Part shown: positions 3,311-61,304 of the stretch, one piece after another
Layout: every line of letters starts with the position of its first letter
Position numbering within the stretch: position 1 is the first letter of the stretch
Assembly (NCBI GenBank): GCA_043808095.1
Contig: JAZDFF010000031.1
Coordinates: forward strand, 37,073 to 101,072
DNA length: 64,000 nucleotides
Reading direction: 5' to 3'
From: Candidatus Omnitrophota bacterium
GTDB lineage: Bacteria > Omnitrophota > Gorgyraeia > JAZDFF01
The notes under the pieces: generated by a model
What the model was told of the DNA's origin: nothing
Database searches by the model: none
What the model saw: the letters and a program-made list of their open reading frames with translations, nothing else
Translations under genes and position numbers: made by a program

Positions 3311-3393
3311 AATGATTTCAATGATTGAAAGGCAATTAAAATCACGTAATCTATTTTTAATAATCACTGTAATCATTTTTAGAAGGAGAAATA

Positions 3394-5743: not shown

Positions 5744-5887
5744 GAAATGATTACAGTGATTTTTCCCGCCACAAAGATTGGCGGGTCCGCCAAAGCATTA
5801 TGGCGGAAAAAGAGATTACAGTGATTAATTACCGTAATCAATGTTAATAATCACTGGAATCATAACTAATTTTTTAACAGGAATAAC

Positions 5888-7783: not shown

Positions 7784-7913
7784 AAATAAATACATTACAC
7801 CGCTAAACCGCAAAATTGCCGCAAAATCGCAAAATTTTTTAATATTTTCTTTGCGTTTTTGCGCCCACGGTTAGTATTTCTGTAGTTTTGCGCCTTTGCG
7901 GTGTTAAAAGAGC

Positions 7914-10356: not shown

Positions 10357-10544
10357 ATGAGGTTACAACTTATGGAACATAGTGACATAAGTTGTCTGGC
10401 CGAATTTATCCCGAGCAATCATTTATTTGAATGGTTGCGAGGGATCTCATTTTTTATCTACTGACGTTTTAGTGGCGGGGAATCATCTGTGCTCATCTGT
10501 GAAATCATTGGTAATGACTTTAAATCTGTGCTAATCTGCGAATT

Positions 10545-11051
10545 ATGGTAATAACAGGCTACGCCTATAAACTCGGCGACAACATCAATACCGACGTAAT
10601 TATCTCGGGCCGTTACAAATTCCAGATCACCGATATGAAAGAGCTCTCAAGGCATATCTTTGAAGATATCGACCCTGATTTTGCCAAAAATATAAAACCG
10701 GGAGAATCTATTATTGTGGCCGGCGAGAATTTCGGCTTAGGTTCATCTCGCGAACAGGCGCCTTTAGCCATAAAGGCCGCAGGTATTGTTGCGGTGGTCG
10801 CCAAAAGTTTTGCCCGCATATTCTTCAGAAATTCATTTAATGTTGGCCTGCCTTTAATTGAATTAGATACTAATCCAATCAGTCAATCGGATAAACTCGA
10901 GATTGATTTAGATAATGGCAGGCTTACTGATTTGACCAAAAACAAAGAACTAAAATCAAAACCCATACCGCCATTTATGCAGGATTTGTTAAAAGAAGAC
11001 GGCGTAATTAATTACTTTAAAAAACACGGCGATTTGAAATTTGACATTTGA
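10545..11051 (+). CDS. leuD: Aconitase-family dehydratase small subunit, archaeal-type LeuD-like (168 aa)
   Basis: LeuD swivel domain and GENFGLGSSREQA motif. It is separated from its large subunit by pilT. Confidence 0.7.
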   Translation: MVITGYAYKLGDNINTDVIISGRYKFQITDMKELSRHIFEDIDPDFAKNIKPGESIIVAGENFGLGSSREQAPLAIKAAGIVAVVAKSFARIFFRNSFNVGLPLIELDTNPISQSDKLEIDLDNGRLTDLTKNKELKSKPIPPFMQDLLKEDGVINYFKKHGDLKFDI

Positions 11052-11132
11052 TTATAAGTATACATCTGTGCTAATCTTGTATCTTTTCATCTGTGCTAAT
11101 CTGTGATTTCTCTTTTTAATTTATAGGAAAAT

Positions 11133-12350: not shown

Positions 12351-12469
12351 ACCGAGAGACGAGCTTCGATGACTAAAAGAATAATAATCTCCTTTTGATT
12401 AACCAATATTTATCTGTGCTCATCTTGTATCATTTCATCTGTGCTAATCTGTGTAAAGATGCAACCTTA

Positions 12470-17264: not shown

Positions 17265-17327
17265 GGTCGATTTTCGCTTTTAATTTAAATTTTTGCGTTT
17301 TAGCGGCTTTTTGCGTTTTGGCGGTAA
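17265..17327. repeat. TTTTGCG/CCGCAAA-family intergenic repeat
   Basis: ttttcgcttt...ttttgcgttttagcggctttttgcgttttggcgg. Related copies occur at 7801-7904, 18959-18996, 19384-19418 and 25690-25805. Confidence 0.6.
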
Positions 17328-17647: not shown

Positions 17648-17676
17648 TTGACAAGACAACTTTTATGTTGTATATT
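17648..17676 (+). promoter_or_regulatory. Near-consensus sigma70 promoter (TTGACA, 17 nt spacer, TATATT) with flanking ACAAC/GTTGT inverted repeats
   Basis: ttgaca at 17648-17653 and tatatt at 17671-17676. The palindromes ttacaacaaaaaagttgtaa and acaagacaac...atgttgt sit directly upstream of the AbiEii-like gene. Confidence 0.55.
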
Positions 17677-17683
17677 TTAATCT

Positions 17684-18400
17684 ATGGCAACGCGCATAGA
17701 ATATCTTCAAAACAGGGTCTTAGGGACATTATCGGAAAAGCTTGATGAATTCTATTTAGCAGGCGGAACCGCGTTATCATTATATTATTTTCATCACCGT
17801 CAATCGTTAGATTTGGATTTTTTCGCCCAAAAATTTTCCCAAAAAAGTGTTCGCAACATTATTAGGCAATTATCTTTAGCTCTAAATAAAGAAATTGAAT
17901 TAATTAGCGAGGAATCTCGAAAGAACAGAGTAAAGATAATGGTTTATTCTCTAATCATTGACAGAAAACGCTCGTTAAAATTAGATTTTGTAGAGGACTA
18001 TCTTAAGCTTATCAGGCCTCCTAAGCCGATAAACGGGATAAAGGTTTTATCTCTCGAGGATATTTATCTTAGAAAAATTTATGCCATAACCGGAACACAG
18101 CAAATTGAGACAGATTTAGGCGCAAAAGTGACTCATGGGGGAAGACAAGAGGCAAGGGATTTTTACGATTTATACTGCCTTTCTCAGATTTTTATGAGGC
18201 TATCGGCTTTTTGTTTTAAATTTGGTAACCCTTTAATGCGCGAGGGCATTATTAGATGGTTTCGCACCTATAGCCGTATGGATATAAAAACAGGCCTTCT
18301 TGAATTAAAATTAAAAAAGAGTATCGCCTATCTTGAAATGGAGAGGCATTTTAAAAGAGAGGTCGAGAAGATTATTGAAAAAGAGGTTAGTTCAATATGA
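17684..18400 (+). CDS. AbiEii/AbiGii-like nucleotidyltransferase (DUF1814 family; type IV TA / abortive-infection toxin-like)
   Basis: N-terminal motif LAGGTALSLYYFHHRQSLDLDFF matches the GGTAL...R.S.DlD signature of the AbiEii NTase family. Confidence 0.55.
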   Translation: MATRIEYLQNRVLGTLSEKLDEFYLAGGTALSLYYFHHRQSLDLDFFAQKFSQKSVRNIIRQLSLALNKEIELISEESRKNRVKIMVYSLIIDRKRSLKLDFVEDYLKLIRPPKPINGIKVLSLEDIYLRKIYAITGTQQIETDLGAKVTHGGRQEARDFYDLYCLSQIFMRLSAFCFKFGNPLMREGIIRWFRTYSRMDIKTGLLELKLKKSIAYLEMERHFKREVEKIIEKEVSSI

Positions 18401-18930
18401 AATTAAAAAGTGATTGGCTTTGGGATAGAAAAATTACCCCCCAAAAAGCAAAGTCTATATTAAGCAGGCCCGATGATGCGCATTTTTTGGGTTTGGCAAG
18501 CCTTCTATTGTCTAGAAAGAACTCGCCTCAGGAGGTATTTAAGAATTACATTAAGACAATGGATTTCTTGCAAAATTGGCAGAGAATTAAAAGACAGATG
18601 CGTAAAGACAACTGGAATAATCCACGCATAGAATTCTGGCAGGCCATTTATGAGACATTAAAGAAAAAAAATAAGATAAAAATGGTTAATATTTACAATG
18701 GGGAAGAGTTAACAAAACCAAAAAATGAATTTTATAGGACCATTGCCGATAAATTAAAAATGATCCGAAAACAAAAAGGGATAAGCCAGGGCGAATTAGC
18801 CAAGAGGCTTAAGGTTTCTCAGCAGGCGATTTCGCATATTGAGATGGGCAGAGATAATGCCTCTTTACTTACTCTCAAAAAGATCGTCGATGCCTTGGGC
18901 GCTAAGCTTGATGTGGAGATTTCCGGCTGA
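18397..18930 (+). CDS. XRE-family helix-turn-helix protein (C-terminal Cro/C1 HTH), translationally coupled to the upstream NTase
   Basis: ISQGELAKRLKVSQQAISHIEMGRDNASLLTLKKI is an HTH_XRE domain. The start overlaps the upstream stop (ATGA). Confidence 0.7.
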   Translation: MKLKSDWLWDRKITPQKAKSILSRPDDAHFLGLASLLLSRKNSPQEVFKNYIKTMDFLQNWQRIKRQMRKDNWNNPRIEFWQAIYETLKKKNKIKMVNIYNGEELTKPKNEFYRTIADKLKMIRKQKGISQGELAKRLKVSQQAISHIEMGRDNASLLTLKKIVDALGAKLDVEISG

Positions 18931-18958
18931 GATAGTTCAGGGTTAAAAATCTATTTTA

Positions 18959-18996
18959 CACCGCTAAATCGCAAAAGGCCGCAAAACCGCAAAATA
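18959..18996. repeat. CCGCAAA-family repeat (left inverted arm flanking the GxxExxY gene)
   Basis: ccgctaaatcgcaaaaggccgcaaaaccgcaaaa. The reverse-complement arm lies at 19384-19418. Confidence 0.6.
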
Positions 18997-19004
18997 TCTA
19001 AAAC

Positions 19005-19382
19005 ATGACATTAGAGCAAATCAATGAATTATCAAATAAAATTATCGGTTTTGCTATTAAAGTCCATAAAGCCTTAGGCCCTGGGTTTGTTGAAAAAGTA
19101 TACGTAAAGGCATTAATATTTGAATTAGAGAAAAATAAAATCAAGTTTACGCAAGAAAAATCCATTAAAGTTAAATACGAAAATCTTCTCTTGGGCCAAC
19201 ATAGATTAGATTTCTTAATTGAAGACGAAATCATCCTAGAAATAAAAGCAGTTTATGAGATAAATAATTTCCATATGGCGCAAATGCTTTCCTATTTAAA
19301 AGCTGCTGATAAGAAATTGGGTTTAATTTTGAATTTTTCTAGATCAAAATTAGAAATAAAACGAGTTGCTTATAACTTATAA
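19005..19382 (+). CDS. GxxExxY family protein (PD-(D/E)XK nuclease-like)
   Basis: GxxExxY family pattern: KVHKALGPGFVEKVY, D.LIED.IILEIKAV. Confidence 0.7.
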   Translation: MTLEQINELSNKIIGFAIKVHKALGPGFVEKVYVKALIFELEKNKIKFTQEKSIKVKYENLLLGQHRLDFLIEDEIILEIKAVYEINNFHMAQMLSYLKAADKKLGLILNFSRSKLEIKRVAYNL

Positions 19383-19383
19383 C

Positions 19384-19418
19384 TTTGCGCCTTTGCGGAA
19401 TTTTGCGCCTTTGCGGTG
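19384..19418. repeat. TTTGCGG-family repeat (right inverted arm)
   Basis: ctttgcgcctttgcggaattttgcgcctttgcggtg. Confidence 0.6.
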
Positions 19419-19441
19419 TTTCTTTATTTTTCCTTAAAAGT

Positions 19442-19888
19442 ATGGCAAAGATCCAATCTCAAATCTTAGTTAAAAAGGGACGCGAAGAGATCTTTAACCT
19501 GCTTAAGGATATGGAGCGTTTCCCGGAATTCATGCGCGACGTAAAAAGCCTTCATATCTTAGAGCATGTTGATAATAAACTTATTACCAAATGGCAGATT
19601 GAGATAGAGAATACCGCAATCACCTGGAAGGAAGAGGATGTCTTCGACGACAAAAACTATACTCTAAAGTTTCATATGCTTGAAGGCGACTATCAGGAAT
19701 ACCAGGGCTCCTGGCGCCTCGAGCCGCATTCCGGCACCACCCGGATTAAAATAGACGCTGTCTTTGACTGGGGTATCCCGGTTTTAGAGAGATTTGTCGC
19801 AAATGTCCTTGAGCGTAAAGCCCGGCTTGCATTTGAGGGCATGCTCAAATCTATCAAGAAAAGATTGGAAGTTGATTTGCACAGATGA
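19442..19888 (+). CDS. SRPBCC (START/Bet v1-like, polyketide cyclase/CoxG-type) domain protein
   Basis: Its length of about 148 aa from MAKIQSQ and its sequence are typical of SRPBCC ligand-binding proteins. The stop codon lies inside a CACAGATGA repeat. Confidence 0.5.
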   Translation: MAKIQSQILVKKGREEIFNLLKDMERFPEFMRDVKSLHILEHVDNKLITKWQIEIENTAITWKEEDVFDDKNYTLKFHMLEGDYQEYQGSWRLEPHSGTTRIKIDAVFDWGIPVLERFVANVLERKARLAFEGMLKSIKKRLEVDLHR

Positions 19889-19920
19889 GCGCAGATAAAA
19901 GAACAGATGAGCACAGATTC
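19880..19920. repeat. CACAGATGAGCACAGAT repeat (inverted orientation of the ATCTGTGCTAATCTGTG family)
   Basis: acagatgagcgcagataaaagaacagatgagcacagattc. It overlaps a stop codon and the next start. Confidence 0.6.
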
Positions 19921-20287
19921 TGGAATATATAAAGACCTTACCTACAAAATTATTGGCGTACTTTACGAAGTTCATAATGAGCTTGGGCCAGTTCATAAGG
20001 AGAATATTTATCATAAGGCAGTTGCGATAGAGTTAAAAAGTAAAAATATAAACTTCGATGAAGAAAAATATCTGCCTGTTATGTATAAAGGTCATAAAAT
20101 AGGGATATATAAACCGGATTTCATCATTGAAGATAAGGTTATATTGGAAATTAAAGCAGTCCCCTTATTAACTAAGGCGATGTTTGACCAGATTTATTAT
20201 TATCTTAAAGGCTCCAAATATAAACTGGTATTATTGGCTAATTTCGGATCCAGTAAATTAACTCTAAAACGCCGTATTTATACATAA
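19907..20287 (+). CDS. GxxExxY family protein (PD-(D/E)XK nuclease-like), second paralog
   Basis: EVHNELGPVHKENIYHKA and D.IIEDKVILEIKAV. It is a paralog of the gene at 19005-19382. Confidence 0.7.
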   Translation: MSTDSGIYKDLTYKIIGVLYEVHNELGPVHKENIYHKAVAIELKSKNINFDEEKYLPVMYKGHKIGIYKPDFIIEDKVILEIKAVPLLTKAMFDQIYYYLKGSKYKLVLLANFGSSKLTLKRRIYT

Positions 20288-20346
20288 CATCTGTGCTAAT
20301 CTGTGAAAACACACATTTTAACTATTAATCTGTGCTAATCTGTGTG
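20288..20346. repeat. ATCTGTGCTAATCTGTG-family repeat, two tandem units
   Basis: atctgtgctaatctgtgaaaac...atctgtgctaatctgtgtg. Other copies lie at 10485-10540, 11064-11106, 12412-12454 and 50651-50740. Confidence 0.65.
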
Positions 20347-25689: not shown

Positions 25690-25805
25690 AACCGCAAAGA
25701 ACGCAAAAGTAGATAGCTATTAAAAACACCGCAAAGTTCGCAAAGAATAATTTTGGCGGTTTAGCGGTGAAAAAGTTTAAATTCAATTTTTTGCGCTTTG
25801 GCGAT
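25690..25805. repeat. CCGCAAA/TTTGCGG-family inverted repeat pair (empty element)
   Basis: accgcaaagaacgcaaaag...caccgcaaagttcgcaaag ... ttttggcggtttagcggtg ... ttttttgcgctttggcg. Confidence 0.55.
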
Positions 25806-34482: not shown

Positions 34483-34616
34483 TTTACAAGGCGAATTCCG
34501 GGGAATTCCGGGGACACACACGTAATTCACGGATTATTTGAATTTCATAAAATTACTAGACGCTTTATTTAAACACTTGGAAAATAAGGACAGCGACTAT
34601 TTATTTTTATATCTAA

Positions 34617-36385: not shown

Positions 36386-36568
36386 ATAAAAAATCATAGA
36401 TATCTTTGTTCTCAAATGCAATTTAAGAAATAGGAGTTCTTATACCAATTTTTATATAGACTTATAAAGAGGCATTTATGAAAAGAGCACTTCTAGTCAG
36501 CATAAGCAATAATGGTGTCAGAACTCAATAACCCTTTTAATATATAAAATTGTCGTGTAAAAATTCCG

Positions 36569-37263
36569 GGGACACGTACCTTTTATTTAACAAATAATAT
36601 CAGATGACGTAGAAACATCCATGAGTCCACGAATGGCAAGAATTGTTTTTTCTAATATGCCTCATCACATAGTTCAGCGAGGTAATAGAAGGCAGGATGT
36701 ATTTTTTGAAGATGAAGACCGCGAGATTTATTTACGTTTATTAAAAGAACAGATACAAAAGTATGAAGTCCAAGTATGGGCGTATTGTCTTATGAGTAAC
36801 CACGTACATTTAATCGTTGTTCCCGCCAATAAAGATTCTTTAGCGAAAGCCATAGGAGAAACCCATAAAAGATATACCAGAATGATCAATTTCCGAGAAG
36901 GATGGCGTGGATATCTTTGGGAGGGTAGATTTAAGAGTTTTCTCTTGGATGAAAAGTATGTCTATGCCGCTGTTCGTTACGTTGAGAGAAATCCGGCAAG
37001 AGTTAAGATTGTAAAAAGAGCGGAAGATTACCCTTGGTCAAGTGCCAAGGCCCATATTAAACGTCTAAATGGAACCGTCTTAAGTGATTTCTATCTCTTA
37101 GATGAAATAGCAGATTGGTCAGATTATTTACGCCAGGAGGATAAAGAAGAAGACTTGAAGATATTTAGGCGTCATGGCAGTGTGGGTAAACCAATAGGGG
37201 ATGCTAAATTCATAAAACGGACTCGGATTAATCAGTTCAATTAGGTACGTGTCCCCGGAACTT
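36569..37263 (+). mobile_element. REP-associated tyrosine transposase (RAYT/IS200-like) unit with flanking inverted REP-like sequences TTCCGGGGACACGTACC
   Basis: ttccggggacacgtacc at 36569-36585 and its reverse complement ggtacgtgtccccggaa at 37247-37263 bracket the tnp ORF. A related gaattccggggaattccggggacacacacg lies at 34491-34522. Confidence 0.65.
36621..37244 (+). CDS. IS200/IS605-family Y1 (HUH) transposase, RAYT-like
   Basis: HUH motif SNHVHLIV, a downstream conserved Tyr region (YVERNPARVKIV...YPWSS), and a typical N-terminus MARIVFSNMPHHIVQRGNRRQDVFF. Confidence 0.75.
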   Translation: MSPRMARIVFSNMPHHIVQRGNRRQDVFFEDEDREIYLRLLKEQIQKYEVQVWAYCLMSNHVHLIVVPANKDSLAKAIGETHKRYTRMINFREGWRGYLWEGRFKSFLLDEKYVYAAVRYVERNPARVKIVKRAEDYPWSSAKAHIKRLNGTVLSDFYLLDEIADWSDYLRQEDKEEDLKIFRRHGSVGKPIGDAKFIKRTRINQFN

Positions 37264-41712: not shown

Positions 41713-41901
41713 TTGATACTGCTGATAGCATTAATCAAATGTCTAATATCGAATTTCTAATGCCTAATAAATGTTCAAATTCTTAATATCTAATTTAAAA
41801 TTAGACATTTTCCCGCCAAAAGCGGGATCCCGCTGGATTCTTTCTATTGTGCGGGATAATCACTGTAATCTTTTTGGTAATCACCGTAATCATTATTTAA
41901 T

Positions 41902-43806: not shown

Positions 43807-43939
43807 AAATGATTACAGTGATTACCAAAAAGATTCCAGGGATTAAAGAAGATTGAAACGCCAGTTGGCAAATTTTGCTTGCGTCCCAAAAGTTTCTATG
43901 ACATCAAGAAAAATTTAACCGCCAGTTGGCAAATTTTTC

Positions 43940-43968: not shown

Positions 43969-43989
43969 AATATAGAGATTTTCGTATTA

Positions 43990-44200
43990 GGTTAAGGGAA
44001 ATCCGTGCTTCGATTTCGCTTAGAATGAACACTGAGTGAAACGAAGTGTTAAAATCGGATGCGGTCCCGCCGCTGTAACCCCGGGCTTTTTATAAAAAAA
44101 AGCGGACCCTTTTAGCAGAAAATACCACTGCCTCAAAGAAACGTCGAGGTGGGAAGGTGGCTAAAAGGGCGGGGGAGCCAGAAGACCTACCTAATAAAAT
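43990..44200 (+). ncRNA. Cobalamin (AdoCbl) riboswitch
   Basis: Core AAGGGAA...GTGTTAAAATCGGATGCGGTCCCGCCGCTGTAACC matches the GGUGAAAAUCC / GCNGNNCCCGCCACUGU core. The B12-box-like GAGCCAGAAGACCTACC lies at 44175-44191. The element sits upstream of btuFCD. Confidence 0.55.
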
Positions 44201-44268
44201 GATTTAGCGTTTTATGTTTCGCTAAACGCTACATCCTCGCGGAAGGGCTAAGTAAAAAAAGGGTGCAA

Positions 44269-49926: not shown

Positions 49927-50660
49927 ATAACTTAGCAGTTATTTCTTCCTGGAGTGGCGGCAAAGACGGTTGTCTGGCCTGTTATAAAGCAATAAAACAG
50001 GGTTATCAGGTAAAATTTCTTCTTAATTTTATTTCTCGGGAACATAAGCGCTGTTGTTTTCACGGAATCGAGTCCGGCCTCTTGAAATTGCAGGCTGAAG
50101 CAGTAGGATTCCCTCTTATCCAAAAAGAGGTTACTGCCGATATGCAGAAATACGAAGAGGAATTTAAAGAAGCTGTACTTGAATTAAAAACCAAAGGGAT
50201 TAAAACGATGGTTTTCGGAGATATATATCTACTGGACCAGATAAATTGGGTCGAACGCGTCTGTAAAGACTTAGAGATTGTCCCTCTAGAACCACTTTGG
50301 AACGTTCCTCCTTCGGAAATTATAGAAGAGTTTATTGATTTAGGCTTTAAGGCAATCATTGTCAGTTGTAAGGCCGATAAATTAGGAGGGGATTTTATCG
50401 GAAGGTGCTTGGATAAAGAAATAGTGAAAGAGTTCAAAAAGAGAAATGTTTGTCCCTGCGGAGAGAACGGCGAGTTTCATACCCTTGTTATCGACGGCCC
50501 CTTGTTTAAAAAAAGAATTGAGATATTAGAAAGCAGGCCCGTACTTAAAGAAGGGTTTTGGAAACATTGGTTTCTGGATATAAAAAAAATAATCCAGATA
50601 GACAAAGGAAATCCTTGTGTGATTCAGAGTGTTGCCCTGCAACGGTGTTATCACAGATGA
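49923..50660 (+). CDS. MJ0570/Dph6-like PP-loop ATP pyrophosphatase family protein
   Basis: PP-loop SWSGGKDG at the N-terminus (from MNNLAVISSW), the ...EFHT motif, and ATGA coupling to cobS. Confidence 0.55.
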   Translation: MNNLAVISSWSGGKDGCLACYKAIKQGYQVKFLLNFISREHKRCCFHGIESGLLKLQAEAVGFPLIQKEVTADMQKYEEEFKEAVLELKTKGIKTMVFGDIYLLDQINWVERVCKDLEIVPLEPLWNVPPSEIIEEFIDLGFKAIIVSCKADKLGGDFIGRCLDKEIVKEFKKRNVCPCGENGEFHTLVIDGPLFKKRIEILESRPVLKEGFWKHWFLDIKKIIQIDKGNPCVIQSVALQRCYHR

Positions 50661-50740
50661 GCACAGATTGTAAGATACAGATAAACACAGAGAAGAATTT
50701 CTGTGATAATTTGTGAAATTTTTTCTGTGCAAATCTGTGG
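50651..50740. repeat. CACAGATGAGCACAGAT / TCTGTGCAAATCTGTGG inverted repeat pair (empty member of the ATCTGTG family)
   Basis: cacagatgagcacagattg...acagataaacacagag ... tctgtgataatttgtg...tctgtgcaaatctgtgg. It provides the stop codon of the upstream gene. Confidence 0.6.
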
Positions 50741-53605: not shown

Positions 53606-53717
53606 GGGCGTCACAAAAGTGCCGCCCTTGATTACTGTGATTAAGAAAACAGATTACAGCGATTAAGCATGTCATCGAGATAATCACTGGAATCTTATTT
53701 AAAATCACTGTAATCAT
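53606..53717. repeat. Composite intergenic repeat: GGGCGTCACAAAAGTGCCGCCC hairpin plus TGATTACAGTGATT / AATCACTGTAATCA inverted units
   Basis: Same composite, in inverse orientation, at 61147-61276. The TGATTACAGTGATT family also lies at 1392-1440, 2836-2862, 3340-3380, 5745-5866, 41851-41905, 43803-43830 and 58295-58355. Confidence 0.65.
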
Positions 53718-53774
53718 AGGCTGGAACGGCTTTCGTGACAGCCTATTCCTAAAAAGAAAAGGAGATGATTAAAT

Positions 53775-58288: not shown

Positions 58289-58368
58289 TAAAAAATGATT
58301 GCAGCGATTAGTAATTATGATTACAGTGATTAAATCTCTGGAATCATCTATTAATAAAGGAGGTTCGC

Positions 58369-61139: not shown

Positions 61140-61304
61140 TAAAGATTGATTCCTATGATTGAAAAAATGATTGCAGTGATTTTTAATAAGATTCCAGAGA
61201 TTATCTCACTGAGTTTGAATCGCCGTAATCTGTTTTACTAATCACTGTAATCAAGGGCGGCACTTTTGTGGCGCCCTAATGATTTGAAGAAAGGAGAGGT
61301 TTTA

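Follow-up and report, generated by a model that had tools for sequence, protein, structure and literature searches.

A 64,000-nt stretch of the metagenome-assembled genome of a Candidatus Omnitrophota bacterium (GenBank assembly GCA_043808095.1, contig JAZDFF010000031.1, positions 37,073 to 101,072; here called the window) contains two GxxExxY / PDDEXK_3 nuclease genes, g1 and g2, each bracketed by inverted arrays of a different 8–10-nt repeat unit (Table 1). We found that flanking arrays of this kind are conserved in the GxxExxY clade in many phyla. In our judgement the question is evenly balanced whether such a cassette, about 0.5 kb long, is one inserted mobile unit made up of the nuclease gene and its own two ends, in which case the hairpins of the same units that lack an open reading frame (ORF) would be its derivatives.

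A preliminary description of this DNA took the two genes to be GxxExxY (PD-(D/E)XK-like) paralogs, and profile searches agree: they match TIGR04256 (GxxExxY) at 137.5 bits for g1 and 115.5 bits for g2 (cut-off 35), and PF13366 (PDDEXK_3) at 130.3 and 114.4 bits (cut-off 22). They are the sole GxxExxY copies in the window, and the gene between them matches the SRPBCC / Polyketide_cyc profile, as had been described; that two cassettes surround one SRPBCC gene appears incidental. The nesting of each gene between inverted copies of a different repeat family is equally real. For g1, the left arm at 18958–18993 (ACACCGCTAAATCGCAAAAGGCCGCAAAACCGCAAA) pairs with its inverse at 19384–19419 over 36 nt, with 81% complementarity. 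For g2 there is one pairing of 21 nt (19876–19896 with 20289–20309, 86%) and another of 17 nt (19903–19919 with 20327–20343, 94%), the arms comprising two CACAGATGAGCRCAGAT double units (19880–19918) and two inverse ATCTGTGCTAATCTGTG double units (20289–20344). The double unit is ACACCGCAAAGGCGCAAAA in the g1 cassette and CACAGATNAGCACAGAT in the g2 cassette. Within the window, CACAGATNAGCACAGAT with up to 2 mismatches has 10 matches (0.01 expected), and CCGCAAAGGCGCAAA with up to 3 mismatches has 15 (2.2 expected). Units also extend into coding sequence: the triplets CAC AGA TGA supply the stop codon both of the SRPBCC gene (19886–19888) and of a PF01902 PP-loop-type gene (50658–50660), as the preliminary description had noticed, and the start codon of g2 at 19907 is provided by a repeat unit.

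Co-localisation of such repeats with GxxExxY genes, for which the preliminary description proposed a test, was strongly borne out in other organisms. We sampled 80 loci encoding relatives of these proteins (40–73% identity; numbers beginning with L denote loci), whose record titles assign them to Omnitrophota, Planctomycetota, Elusimicrobia, Cloacimonadota, the candidate phyla radiation (CPR), Chloroflexota, Bacteroidota, Nitrospirota, Thermodesulfobacteriota, Verrucomicrobiota and other phyla, and which include isolates such as Mucilaginibacter and Oscillochloris. For each gene a flank score was calculated by aligning the 200 nt upstream to the reverse complement of the 200 nt downstream. A score of at least 28 was reached by 71% of the 63 scorable GxxExxY genes, compared to 4.4% of the 496 remaining ORFs on these sequences, and the median scores were 33 and 18 respectively (Mann-Whitney P = 7 x 10−27). 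Thirteen control ORFs scored 32 or more, three of which are antisense ORFs lying over GxxExxY genes themselves. A Pfam look-up of 8 of the 10 others identified two S23p genes (PF05635) and two Y1 transposase genes; of the four remaining genes, which are ordinary or unassigned, at least truB in L060 lies against an array.

Among viral homologs (32 scorable loci), unit-type arms are found only in the two closest relatives, with 43% and 41% identity. One further viral locus (L106, 34% identity) is flanked by another kind of inverted repeat, long and AT-rich, and the other 29, with homologs of at most 38% identity, have flank scores similar to those of control ORFs (median 18). Since these distant viral homologs lack arms, the arms belong to one clade and not to the fold. 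Besides the window, only one locus has two GxxExxY copies within 8 kb, a tandem pair in a Cloacimonadota record (L033, 3899–4796).

The arms are arrays of short units rather than plain inverted repeats. The core of the unit is C-R-C-N-R-A, and an arm usually has two double units. In 61 of the 79 cassettes each arm contains two or more C-R-C-N-N-A cores; the opposite polarity occurs in 1. Over 479 units the commonest spacings are 8 nt (85 cases) and 9 nt (78 cases); a second mode, at 15–24 nt, arises because each arm has two double units. A purine is found at position 5 in 96% of cases, and the unit variants are CGCAAA, CACAGA, CACGGA, CGCAGA, CACTGA, CACGAA, CACCGA and CGCCAA. The outer ends also follow a pattern: [AC]ACC[AG]C ... 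G[CT]GGT[GT] ends occur in 29 cassettes, versus 2 in a reversed control, and GCAACC ... GGTTGC ends in 10 versus 0. The median gap between arm and ORF is 20 nt before the start codon and 15 nt after the stop codon, and in some lineages the N-terminus of the protein is encoded by the arm.

Two inverted arms could be conserved as a stem in RNA or as sites in DNA, and several comparisons bear on the choice. An RNA-strand signature was not found: among 2130 Watson-Crick pairs between arms there are 86 G.U and 72 A.C mismatches, which is not a significant difference. Identity between the arms of a cassette is higher in unit cores (92.7%) than at inter-core positions (80.9%; P = 1 x 10−16), and arm-specific differences have been kept across lineages: the g1 cassette has them in common with the ORF-less hairpin at 7797 and with another organism's cassette. 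Such core conservation, together with the persistence of arm-specific differences, indicates that the motif is conserved beyond what pairing requires. Orthologous cassettes differ about as often by lineage-specific paired changes (18) as by arm-specific ones (20). There are also pairs in which all eight units changed in concert, as in L003 (CACAGA) versus L005 (CACGGA), which apparently occupy the same site, and in L010 versus L022. Because there is no G.U bias, the cores are conserved, differences between arms persist and units change together, we favour the view that the arms are arrays of repeated recognition sites forming two inverted ends; pairing in a transcript is possible but is not what has chiefly been conserved.

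The cassettes sit mostly inside apparent operons. The upstream neighbor is co-directional in 63 of 75 cases and the downstream neighbor in 63 of 74, with median gaps of 66 and 78 nt. By names that we read from translated flanks, without a family search, two cassettes lie upstream of dnaK (L010, L022) and two downstream of fabF (L003, L005). Three are located between co-directional tRNA genes (L014, L016, L019), and three are at junctions between histidine-kinase and response-regulator genes (L061, L079, L083). No rRNA motif was found in any of the 80 GxxExxY loci, and no promoter above chance level inside the two window cassettes. Transcription through both cassettes probably starts at the promoter-like site upstream of their operon (Table 1); a TTGACA...TATAT-type sequence upstream of the same operon in three relatives was read by eye, not from a promoter scan.

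Genes of the S23p family (PF05635), which encode four-helix-bundle proteins, have analogous inverted arrays. We found them in L055 (800–1162 and 6360–6839), L061 (2045–2419) and L134–L156, with 8-nt units such as GGACGARG, AACGRACA and CAGTAAT. Many of these array-flanked S23p genes sit between histidine-kinase and response-regulator genes, the same type of junction that is occupied by the three GxxExxY cassettes mentioned above. S23p ORFs are also carried by the intervening sequences of 23S rRNA genes in Leptospira and Coxiella, whose stems are cut by RNase III (PMC4990558).

These observations bring in the main rival explanation, which is that a cassette is an RNA-level module similar to an intervening sequence. 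Pairing of its arms in the transcript of the operon would lead to processing, by RNase III for instance, which would release or regulate the mRNA of the small ORF and allow the flanking genes to be expressed again. The nuclease would serve the cell in a way that does not involve the repeats, for example in repair or defence, and the module would depend for its spread on ordinary horizontal transfer and recombination alone. The way in which cassettes are wedged co-directionally into operons and fill their spacers agrees with this, as do those placed between tRNA genes and the result for internal promoters. At many loci the right arm is soon followed by a GGAGG-type Shine-Dalgarno-like sequence and the start codon of the next gene (seen by eye and uncounted). 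Moreover, the ORF class of 23S rRNA intervening sequences, whose stems RNase III does cut (PMC4990558), has analogous arms, and the empty copies fold as hairpins. However, G.U pairs are not in excess over A.C mismatches, the mismatches cluster between unit cores, and arm-specific differences persist across lineages. A stem needs no uniform tandem units, no conserved C-R-C-N-R-A core and no fixed polarity; solo arms exist; and none of the 80 loci is in rRNA. We regard this explanation as rather doubtful, though a possibility to be taken seriously.

The preliminary description suggested looking for presence or absence polymorphism of each cassette, and comparison with relatives shows it for g2. 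Synteny was traced through homologs of the SRPBCC gene; a scan with the neighboring 366-aa gene gave only 30–35% identical loci in metagenome contigs. Three relatives, with SRPBCC proteins 76%, 53% and 45% identical, have the gene order Biotin_lipoyl, HTH_17, SRPBCC and a 361-aa gene, and in them the SRPBCC gene and the one after it are either separated by 9 nt or overlap by 8 nt. At this junction there is neither a GxxExxY gene nor a hairpin in any of the three loci, versus approximately 470 bp (left arm, g2 and right arm) in the window. Since relatives lack the cassette at the orthologous site, the gene and its arms were inserted in the lineage of the window. Excising the segment CACAGATGAG...CTAATCTGTG gives a plausible end to the SRPBCC protein (...EVDL*), although other reconstructions are equally possible. 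Upstream of the g1 cassette, at 17684–18930, there is a pair of genes resembling a type IV toxin-antitoxin system (AbiEii nucleotidyltransferase and Xre-type helix-turn-helix). This pair and the g1 cassette stand in the place of a 62–72-aa HTH_17 gene in the relatives, the result of a second insertion or a replacement.

The same cassette can also be found in another context. The protein P0013, from another organism, is 81% identical to g1 and its gene has near-identical arms (TTTTACACCGCTAAAACGCAAAAATACCGCTAAAACGCAAAATATG ... GCGGTGT), and its neighbor is a glycosyltransferase gene, unlike the context of g1. All relatives of g1 with at least 71% identity have CGCAAA units, whatever their host, and conversely paralogs in the same genome carry different units (in the window, and in the pairs L001/L015, L002/L003 and L011/L013). 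Pairs of cassettes with the same unit have more similar proteins, at 54.6% identity versus 47.6% for other pairs (permutation P < 0.0005), a difference that is confounded by shared descent. These comparisons show that the unit variant goes with the descent of the protein and not with the host.

They also bear on another explanation of the arrays, which is that they are host regulatory or protein-binding sites, or products of slippage, and form no functional or evolutionary unit with the gene. Solo arrays do lie directly upstream of ordinary genes (at 10485, 11064 and 12412), and many other repeat families occur in the spacers of this genome. Set against this are the cross-phylum association, the consistent polarity of the units (61 cassettes versus 1), an insertion polymorphism that takes in the arms, and the occurrence of the same cassette with the same arms in another context (P0013). 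We consider this explanation very improbable and close to refuted.

Our census of repeats covers the window, which is 90% coding. As the preliminary description reported, empty versions of both repeat pairs occur elsewhere in it, and we confirmed ORF-less hairpins at 7797–7904, 25690–25805 and 50652–50740. They are short, non-coding and bounded by terminal inverted repeats, as in a miniature inverted-repeat transposable element (MITE), and they fold as segmented hairpins (z = −4.8, −1.9 and −8.0, respectively). They share a 2+2 / 2+2 unit architecture with loops of just 5–15 nt. The left/right asymmetry of the first (CGCTAAA on the left, CAAAG-GCGCAAAA on the right) is common to the g1 cassette and to L090, and because the hairpin and the g1 cassette share these arm-specific features, loaded and empty elements appear to be related by gain or loss of the ORF. 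There are also solo arrays of both families (Table 1). Three right-arm-type CACAGAT arrays, with no left arm nearby, are 4–75 nt upstream of consecutive genes; the gene that follows the first of them (10545–11051) encodes an aconitase C-terminal domain and is leuD-like. Dispersed copies are less evident in other genomes. A further array of the cassette's own unit was found within 7.5 kb at 6 of 28 other loci and none was seen at the remaining 22, although the total number of own-unit arrays (19) exceeds the 4.1 expected from other units.

The preliminary description inferred from the empty hairpins that GxxExxY genes ride as cargo in MITE-like elements. The nesting on which this was based is real and the association of genes with arrays is strong, but the idea that the genes are passive cargo in pre-existing hairpins is not supported. 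It supposes that independent MITE-like hairpins are moved by another enzyme and that the genes are passengers in their loops. The empty hairpins do have the same architecture as the cassettes but with very short loops, hairpins can be nested in each other's loops (5744–5870), the arms in L083 are compound, and the window contains a gene for a Y1 (RAYT-like) transposase. That gene, however, has an inverted repeat of its own that is different (TTCCGGGGACACGTAC), and orthologous sites in relatives lack the hairpin altogether. The arms are constant in the GxxExxY clade and are present also at loci where we found no second array of that unit within 7.5 kb; the unit variant tracks the protein lineage across hosts; and the arms overlap the start codon and N-terminus of the ORF. 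The supposed cargo is not varied but confined to two gene families. Apart from GxxExxY genes, flanking inverted repeats were found only around S23p and Y1 transposase genes. Constant arms, units that track the lineage, overlap with the ORF and unvaried cargo point to the gene and its arms as the primary entity and to the empty hairpins as derivatives. Because there are empty sites without a hairpin, arms without other same-unit arrays in the flanks we examined, and a cargo of two families, passive cargo is the model that fits worst, and we think it unlikely.

The protein models as a minimal Cas4/RecB-like PD-(D/E)XK nuclease. The best fold matches of its AlphaFold2 model (pLDDT 95) are Cas4 SSO0001, lambda exonuclease and RecE, and the motif set D...ExK...QxxxY is intact, with D69, E79, K81, Q93 and Y97 invariant in an alignment of 22 sequences. 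Matches to Cas4b and Cas4 profiles are weak (E = 1.6 x 10−4 and 4 x 10−3). The g1 protein has no cysteines, so it has no Fe-S cluster and is not Cas4 proper, and the annotated ORFs near the cassettes, to which the search for cas genes was confined, include none. By sequence there was no match to any solved structure, and none in PHROGs. The family is large: its profile matches 30,598 clusters (at 50% identity) with E ≤ 1 x 10−3, and 11,272 with E ≤ 1 x 10−10. Many relatives (P0129–P0175) are two-domain fusions of about 260 aa, in which the first domain keeps the D, ExK and Q residues and the consensus of the second domain lacks ExK. AlphaFold2 models the fusion as a confident pseudo-dimer (pTM 0.84), and a fold search with this model found nothing beyond Cas4 and Hjc. 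The pseudo-dimeric form of the fusions suggests that the nuclease may work as a dimer.

If the cassette is indeed a mobile unit, it could work as follows. The nuclease, probably as a dimer, would read the C-R-C-N-R-A cores at its own ends and cut those ends or a matching hairpin. Cutting would promote copying into new intergenic sites by homing-like or transposition-like repair, and of the possible factors responsible we regard the nuclease as the strongest candidate. Elements without the ORF, the empty hairpins and solo arms, would be derivatives comparable to MITEs and to REPINs (doublets of repetitive extragenic palindromic, REP, sequences). The two arms may also pair in the transcript, since the cassette is co-directional inside operons and has no promoter of its own, and in that way a host operon could tolerate the insertion, much as with the stems of 23S rRNA intervening sequences.

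Several points weigh against the cassette being such a unit. We know of no prokaryotic mobile element that has a 125-aa PD-(D/E)XK nuclease as its only protein. Comparison of the filled target site with the empty one in L093 fits either no duplication or one of 2 bp (TG), three reconstructions being equally plausible. The 22 of 28 genomes with no second own-unit array nearby imply that dispersed empty copies are not general. Any mobility must be rare, since the window paralogs are old and related genomes have cassettes at the same apparent site: in three Mucilaginibacter genomes this is downstream of truB (identified by Pfam only in L060), and in L021, L023, L025 and L045 (two labelled Levybacteria and two Gammaproteobacteria) the flanks are very similar and read by translation as upstream of tsf. 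S23p proteins are non-enzymatic and yet similarly armed, so the arms may be handled by the host or by another trans-acting factor. Finally, G.U mismatches are not in excess over A.C, so nothing directly supports the part of the model in which the arms pair as RNA.

The cassettes resemble several known systems in part, the nearest being 23S rRNA intervening sequences, REPIN-RAYT systems and MITEs. The ends of Tn7 and Mu hold several binding sites each, and TnsA of Tn7 is a PD-(D/E)XK nuclease; the cassettes likewise have at least two inverted repeated sites per end, cores better conserved than spacers and a PD-(D/E)XK enzyme, but they have no DDE partner and consist of only about 0.5 kb with one 125-aa protein. 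I-Ssp6803I is a PD-(D/E)XK homing endonuclease. The GxxExxY proteins match it and Cas4 in fold and catalytic motifs, and are small and putatively sequence-guided, but g1 and g2 are outside any intron or intein, unlike the genes of homing endonucleases of that type, and they differ from Cas4 in having no cysteines and no cas genes among nearby annotated ORFs. MITEs and Correia-type elements are short intergenic hairpins bounded by inverted repeats. The empty copies, at 90–120 nt, are similarly inverted-repeat-bounded, intergenic and co-transcribed, and the hairpin at 7797 shares its ends with its putative parent, the g1 cassette, as MITEs do; this putative parent, however, encodes no known class of transposase. 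In an integron cassette there is a single attC site downstream of the ORF, whereas here arms are on both sides and inverted, and the annotated ORFs near the cassette include no integrase.

There is also a likeness to REPIN-RAYT systems and REPtrons, in which REPINs are associated with REP-associated tyrosine transposases (RAYTs) (PMC3116915): a single nuclease-type gene lies between inverted copies of a repeat, the repeat also occurs as ORF-less intergenic hairpin doublets, paralogs pair with different repeat families, and inheritance is mostly vertical. Dispersal of the repeat is evident in the window and partly elsewhere, own-unit empty arrays being present in the flanks of 6 of the 28 genomes. 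Unlike RAYTs, which are HUH Y1 transposases, g1 and g2 encode PF13366 Cas4/RecB-like PD-(D/E)XK proteins, and the cassette arms are not individually palindromic. The window contains a true example of the REPIN-RAYT type, the Y1_Tnp (IS200/RAYT-like) gene at 36621–37244 (207 aa), which has the perfect 16-nt inverted repeat TTCCGGGGACACGTAC on both sides (region 36564–37263). CCGGGGA copies related to this repeat are found at 34498 and 34508, and the locus has the look of a REPtron in an AT-rich stretch with small unassigned ORFs.

The 23S rRNA intervening sequences share the overall layout, an ORF of about 125 aa within terminal inverted repeats, inserted sporadically into a transcribed unit and long suspected of a mobile origin. 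S23p genes outside rRNA (L055, L061, L134–L156) even have the same tandem-unit arms. The differences are that the cassette ORF encodes a PD-(D/E)XK nuclease and not a four-helix bundle, that the cassettes are in the spacers of protein and tRNA operons and never in rRNA (0 of 80 loci), and that their arms are arrays of C-R-C-N-R-A units. We found no description of arrays flanking GxxExxY genes in the full-text literature, a scope that does not take in subscription journals or curators' comments.

Table 1. Cassettes, empty hairpins, solo arrays and other features of the window.
Feature	Position	Strand	Details
Promoter-like site TTGACA-17-TATATT	17648–17676	+	11/12 matches; upstream of operon
Cassette 1 left arm	18958–18996	+	two CGCAAA-family double units, ACACCGCTAAATCGCAAAAGG and CCGCAAAACCGCAAAAT
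g1, GxxExxY / PDDEXK_3 nuclease gene, 125 aa	19005–19382	+	D69, E79-x-K81, Q93xxxY97
Cassette 1 right arm	19384–19419	+	inverse of left arm: TTTGCGCCTTTGCGG AATT TTGCGCCTTTGCGGTGT
Host SRPBCC gene between cassettes	19442–19888	+	final codons and stop (CAC AGA TGA) from cassette 2 left arm
Cassette 2 left arm	19880–19918	+	two CACAGAT-family double units; holds SRPBCC stop and g2 start codon
g2, GxxExxY / PDDEXK_3 nuclease gene, 126 aa	19907–20287	+	43% identical to g1
Cassette 2 right arm	20288–20346	+	ATCTGTGCTAATCTGTG twice, with a 22-nt spacer between
CGCAAA-family ORF-less hairpin	7797–7904		cassette 1 variants: CGCTAAA left, CAAAG-GCGCAAAA right
CGCAAA-family ORF-less hairpin (2+2 / 2+2 units)	25690–25805		directly upstream of response-regulator gene; 721-aa gene on other side
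CACAGAT-family ORF-less hairpin	50652–50740		first unit provides the stop codon of the PF01902 gene
Solo right-arm-type CACAGAT array	10485–10540		two double units, 22-nt spacer; no left partner
Solo right-arm-type CACAGAT array	11064–11105		
Solo right-arm-type CACAGAT array	12412–12453		
Solo right-arm-type CGCAAA array	17290–17325		downstream of HisKA_7TM kinase gene
Solo left-arm-type CGCAAA/CGCCAA array	29073–29128		
Copies of the GATTACAGTGATT / AATCACTGTAATC family	1387–1449, 3311–3393, 5744–5870, 41870–41901, 43807–43850, 53630–53722, 58289–58345, 61140–61262		

At least eight further families of short-unit repeats occur in other spacers of the intergenic tenth of the window. The commonest repeat family of all, GATTACAGTGATT / AATCACTGTAATC, has no loaded gene in the window; units of its type flank GxxExxY genes in other genomes (L053, L061 and L079). 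The copy at 5744–5870 has two GC-rich mini-hairpins and a further hairpin nested in its loop. The spacers of the ribosomal-protein operon have been colonised by repeats as well: at 2197–2890, infA and rpmJ are separated and flanked by ATTAGCG / CGCGAAT arrays and GC hairpins (CCTGCCTGCC..GGCAGG; CCGCCACAAAG..). A cobalamin riboswitch at 43972–44208 (RF00174, 73 bits) is the only Rfam family that reaches its gathering score in the window.

The function of GxxExxY / PF13366 proteins is listed as unknown (PMC3424549), and the origin and role of intervening sequences and S23p are still unclear more than 25 years after their first identification (PMC4990558). The link between gene and array turns both problems into experiments, asking which nucleic acid is bound or cut and whether the cassette moves. 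It also accounts for a large share of the intergenic repeats of this genome, and explains the spurious low-complexity N-terminal extensions (AKAQKSAEAQK, QPQRTQK) in database entries. Possibly it also explains why most database homologs are on short contigs (many of about 1 kb), although contigs in that collection are short in general. More tentatively, GxxExxY cassettes may possibly represent a new class of mobile element, in which a Cas4/RecB-like PD-(D/E)XK nuclease of about 125 aa would be the only protein and would read arrays of C-R-C-N-R-A units at both ends of the element, with S23p cassettes, including the intervening sequences, as relatives or dependants. If this were true, it would explain the origin of intervening sequences and the source of much of the short intergenic repeat DNA in Omnitrophota and other phyla.

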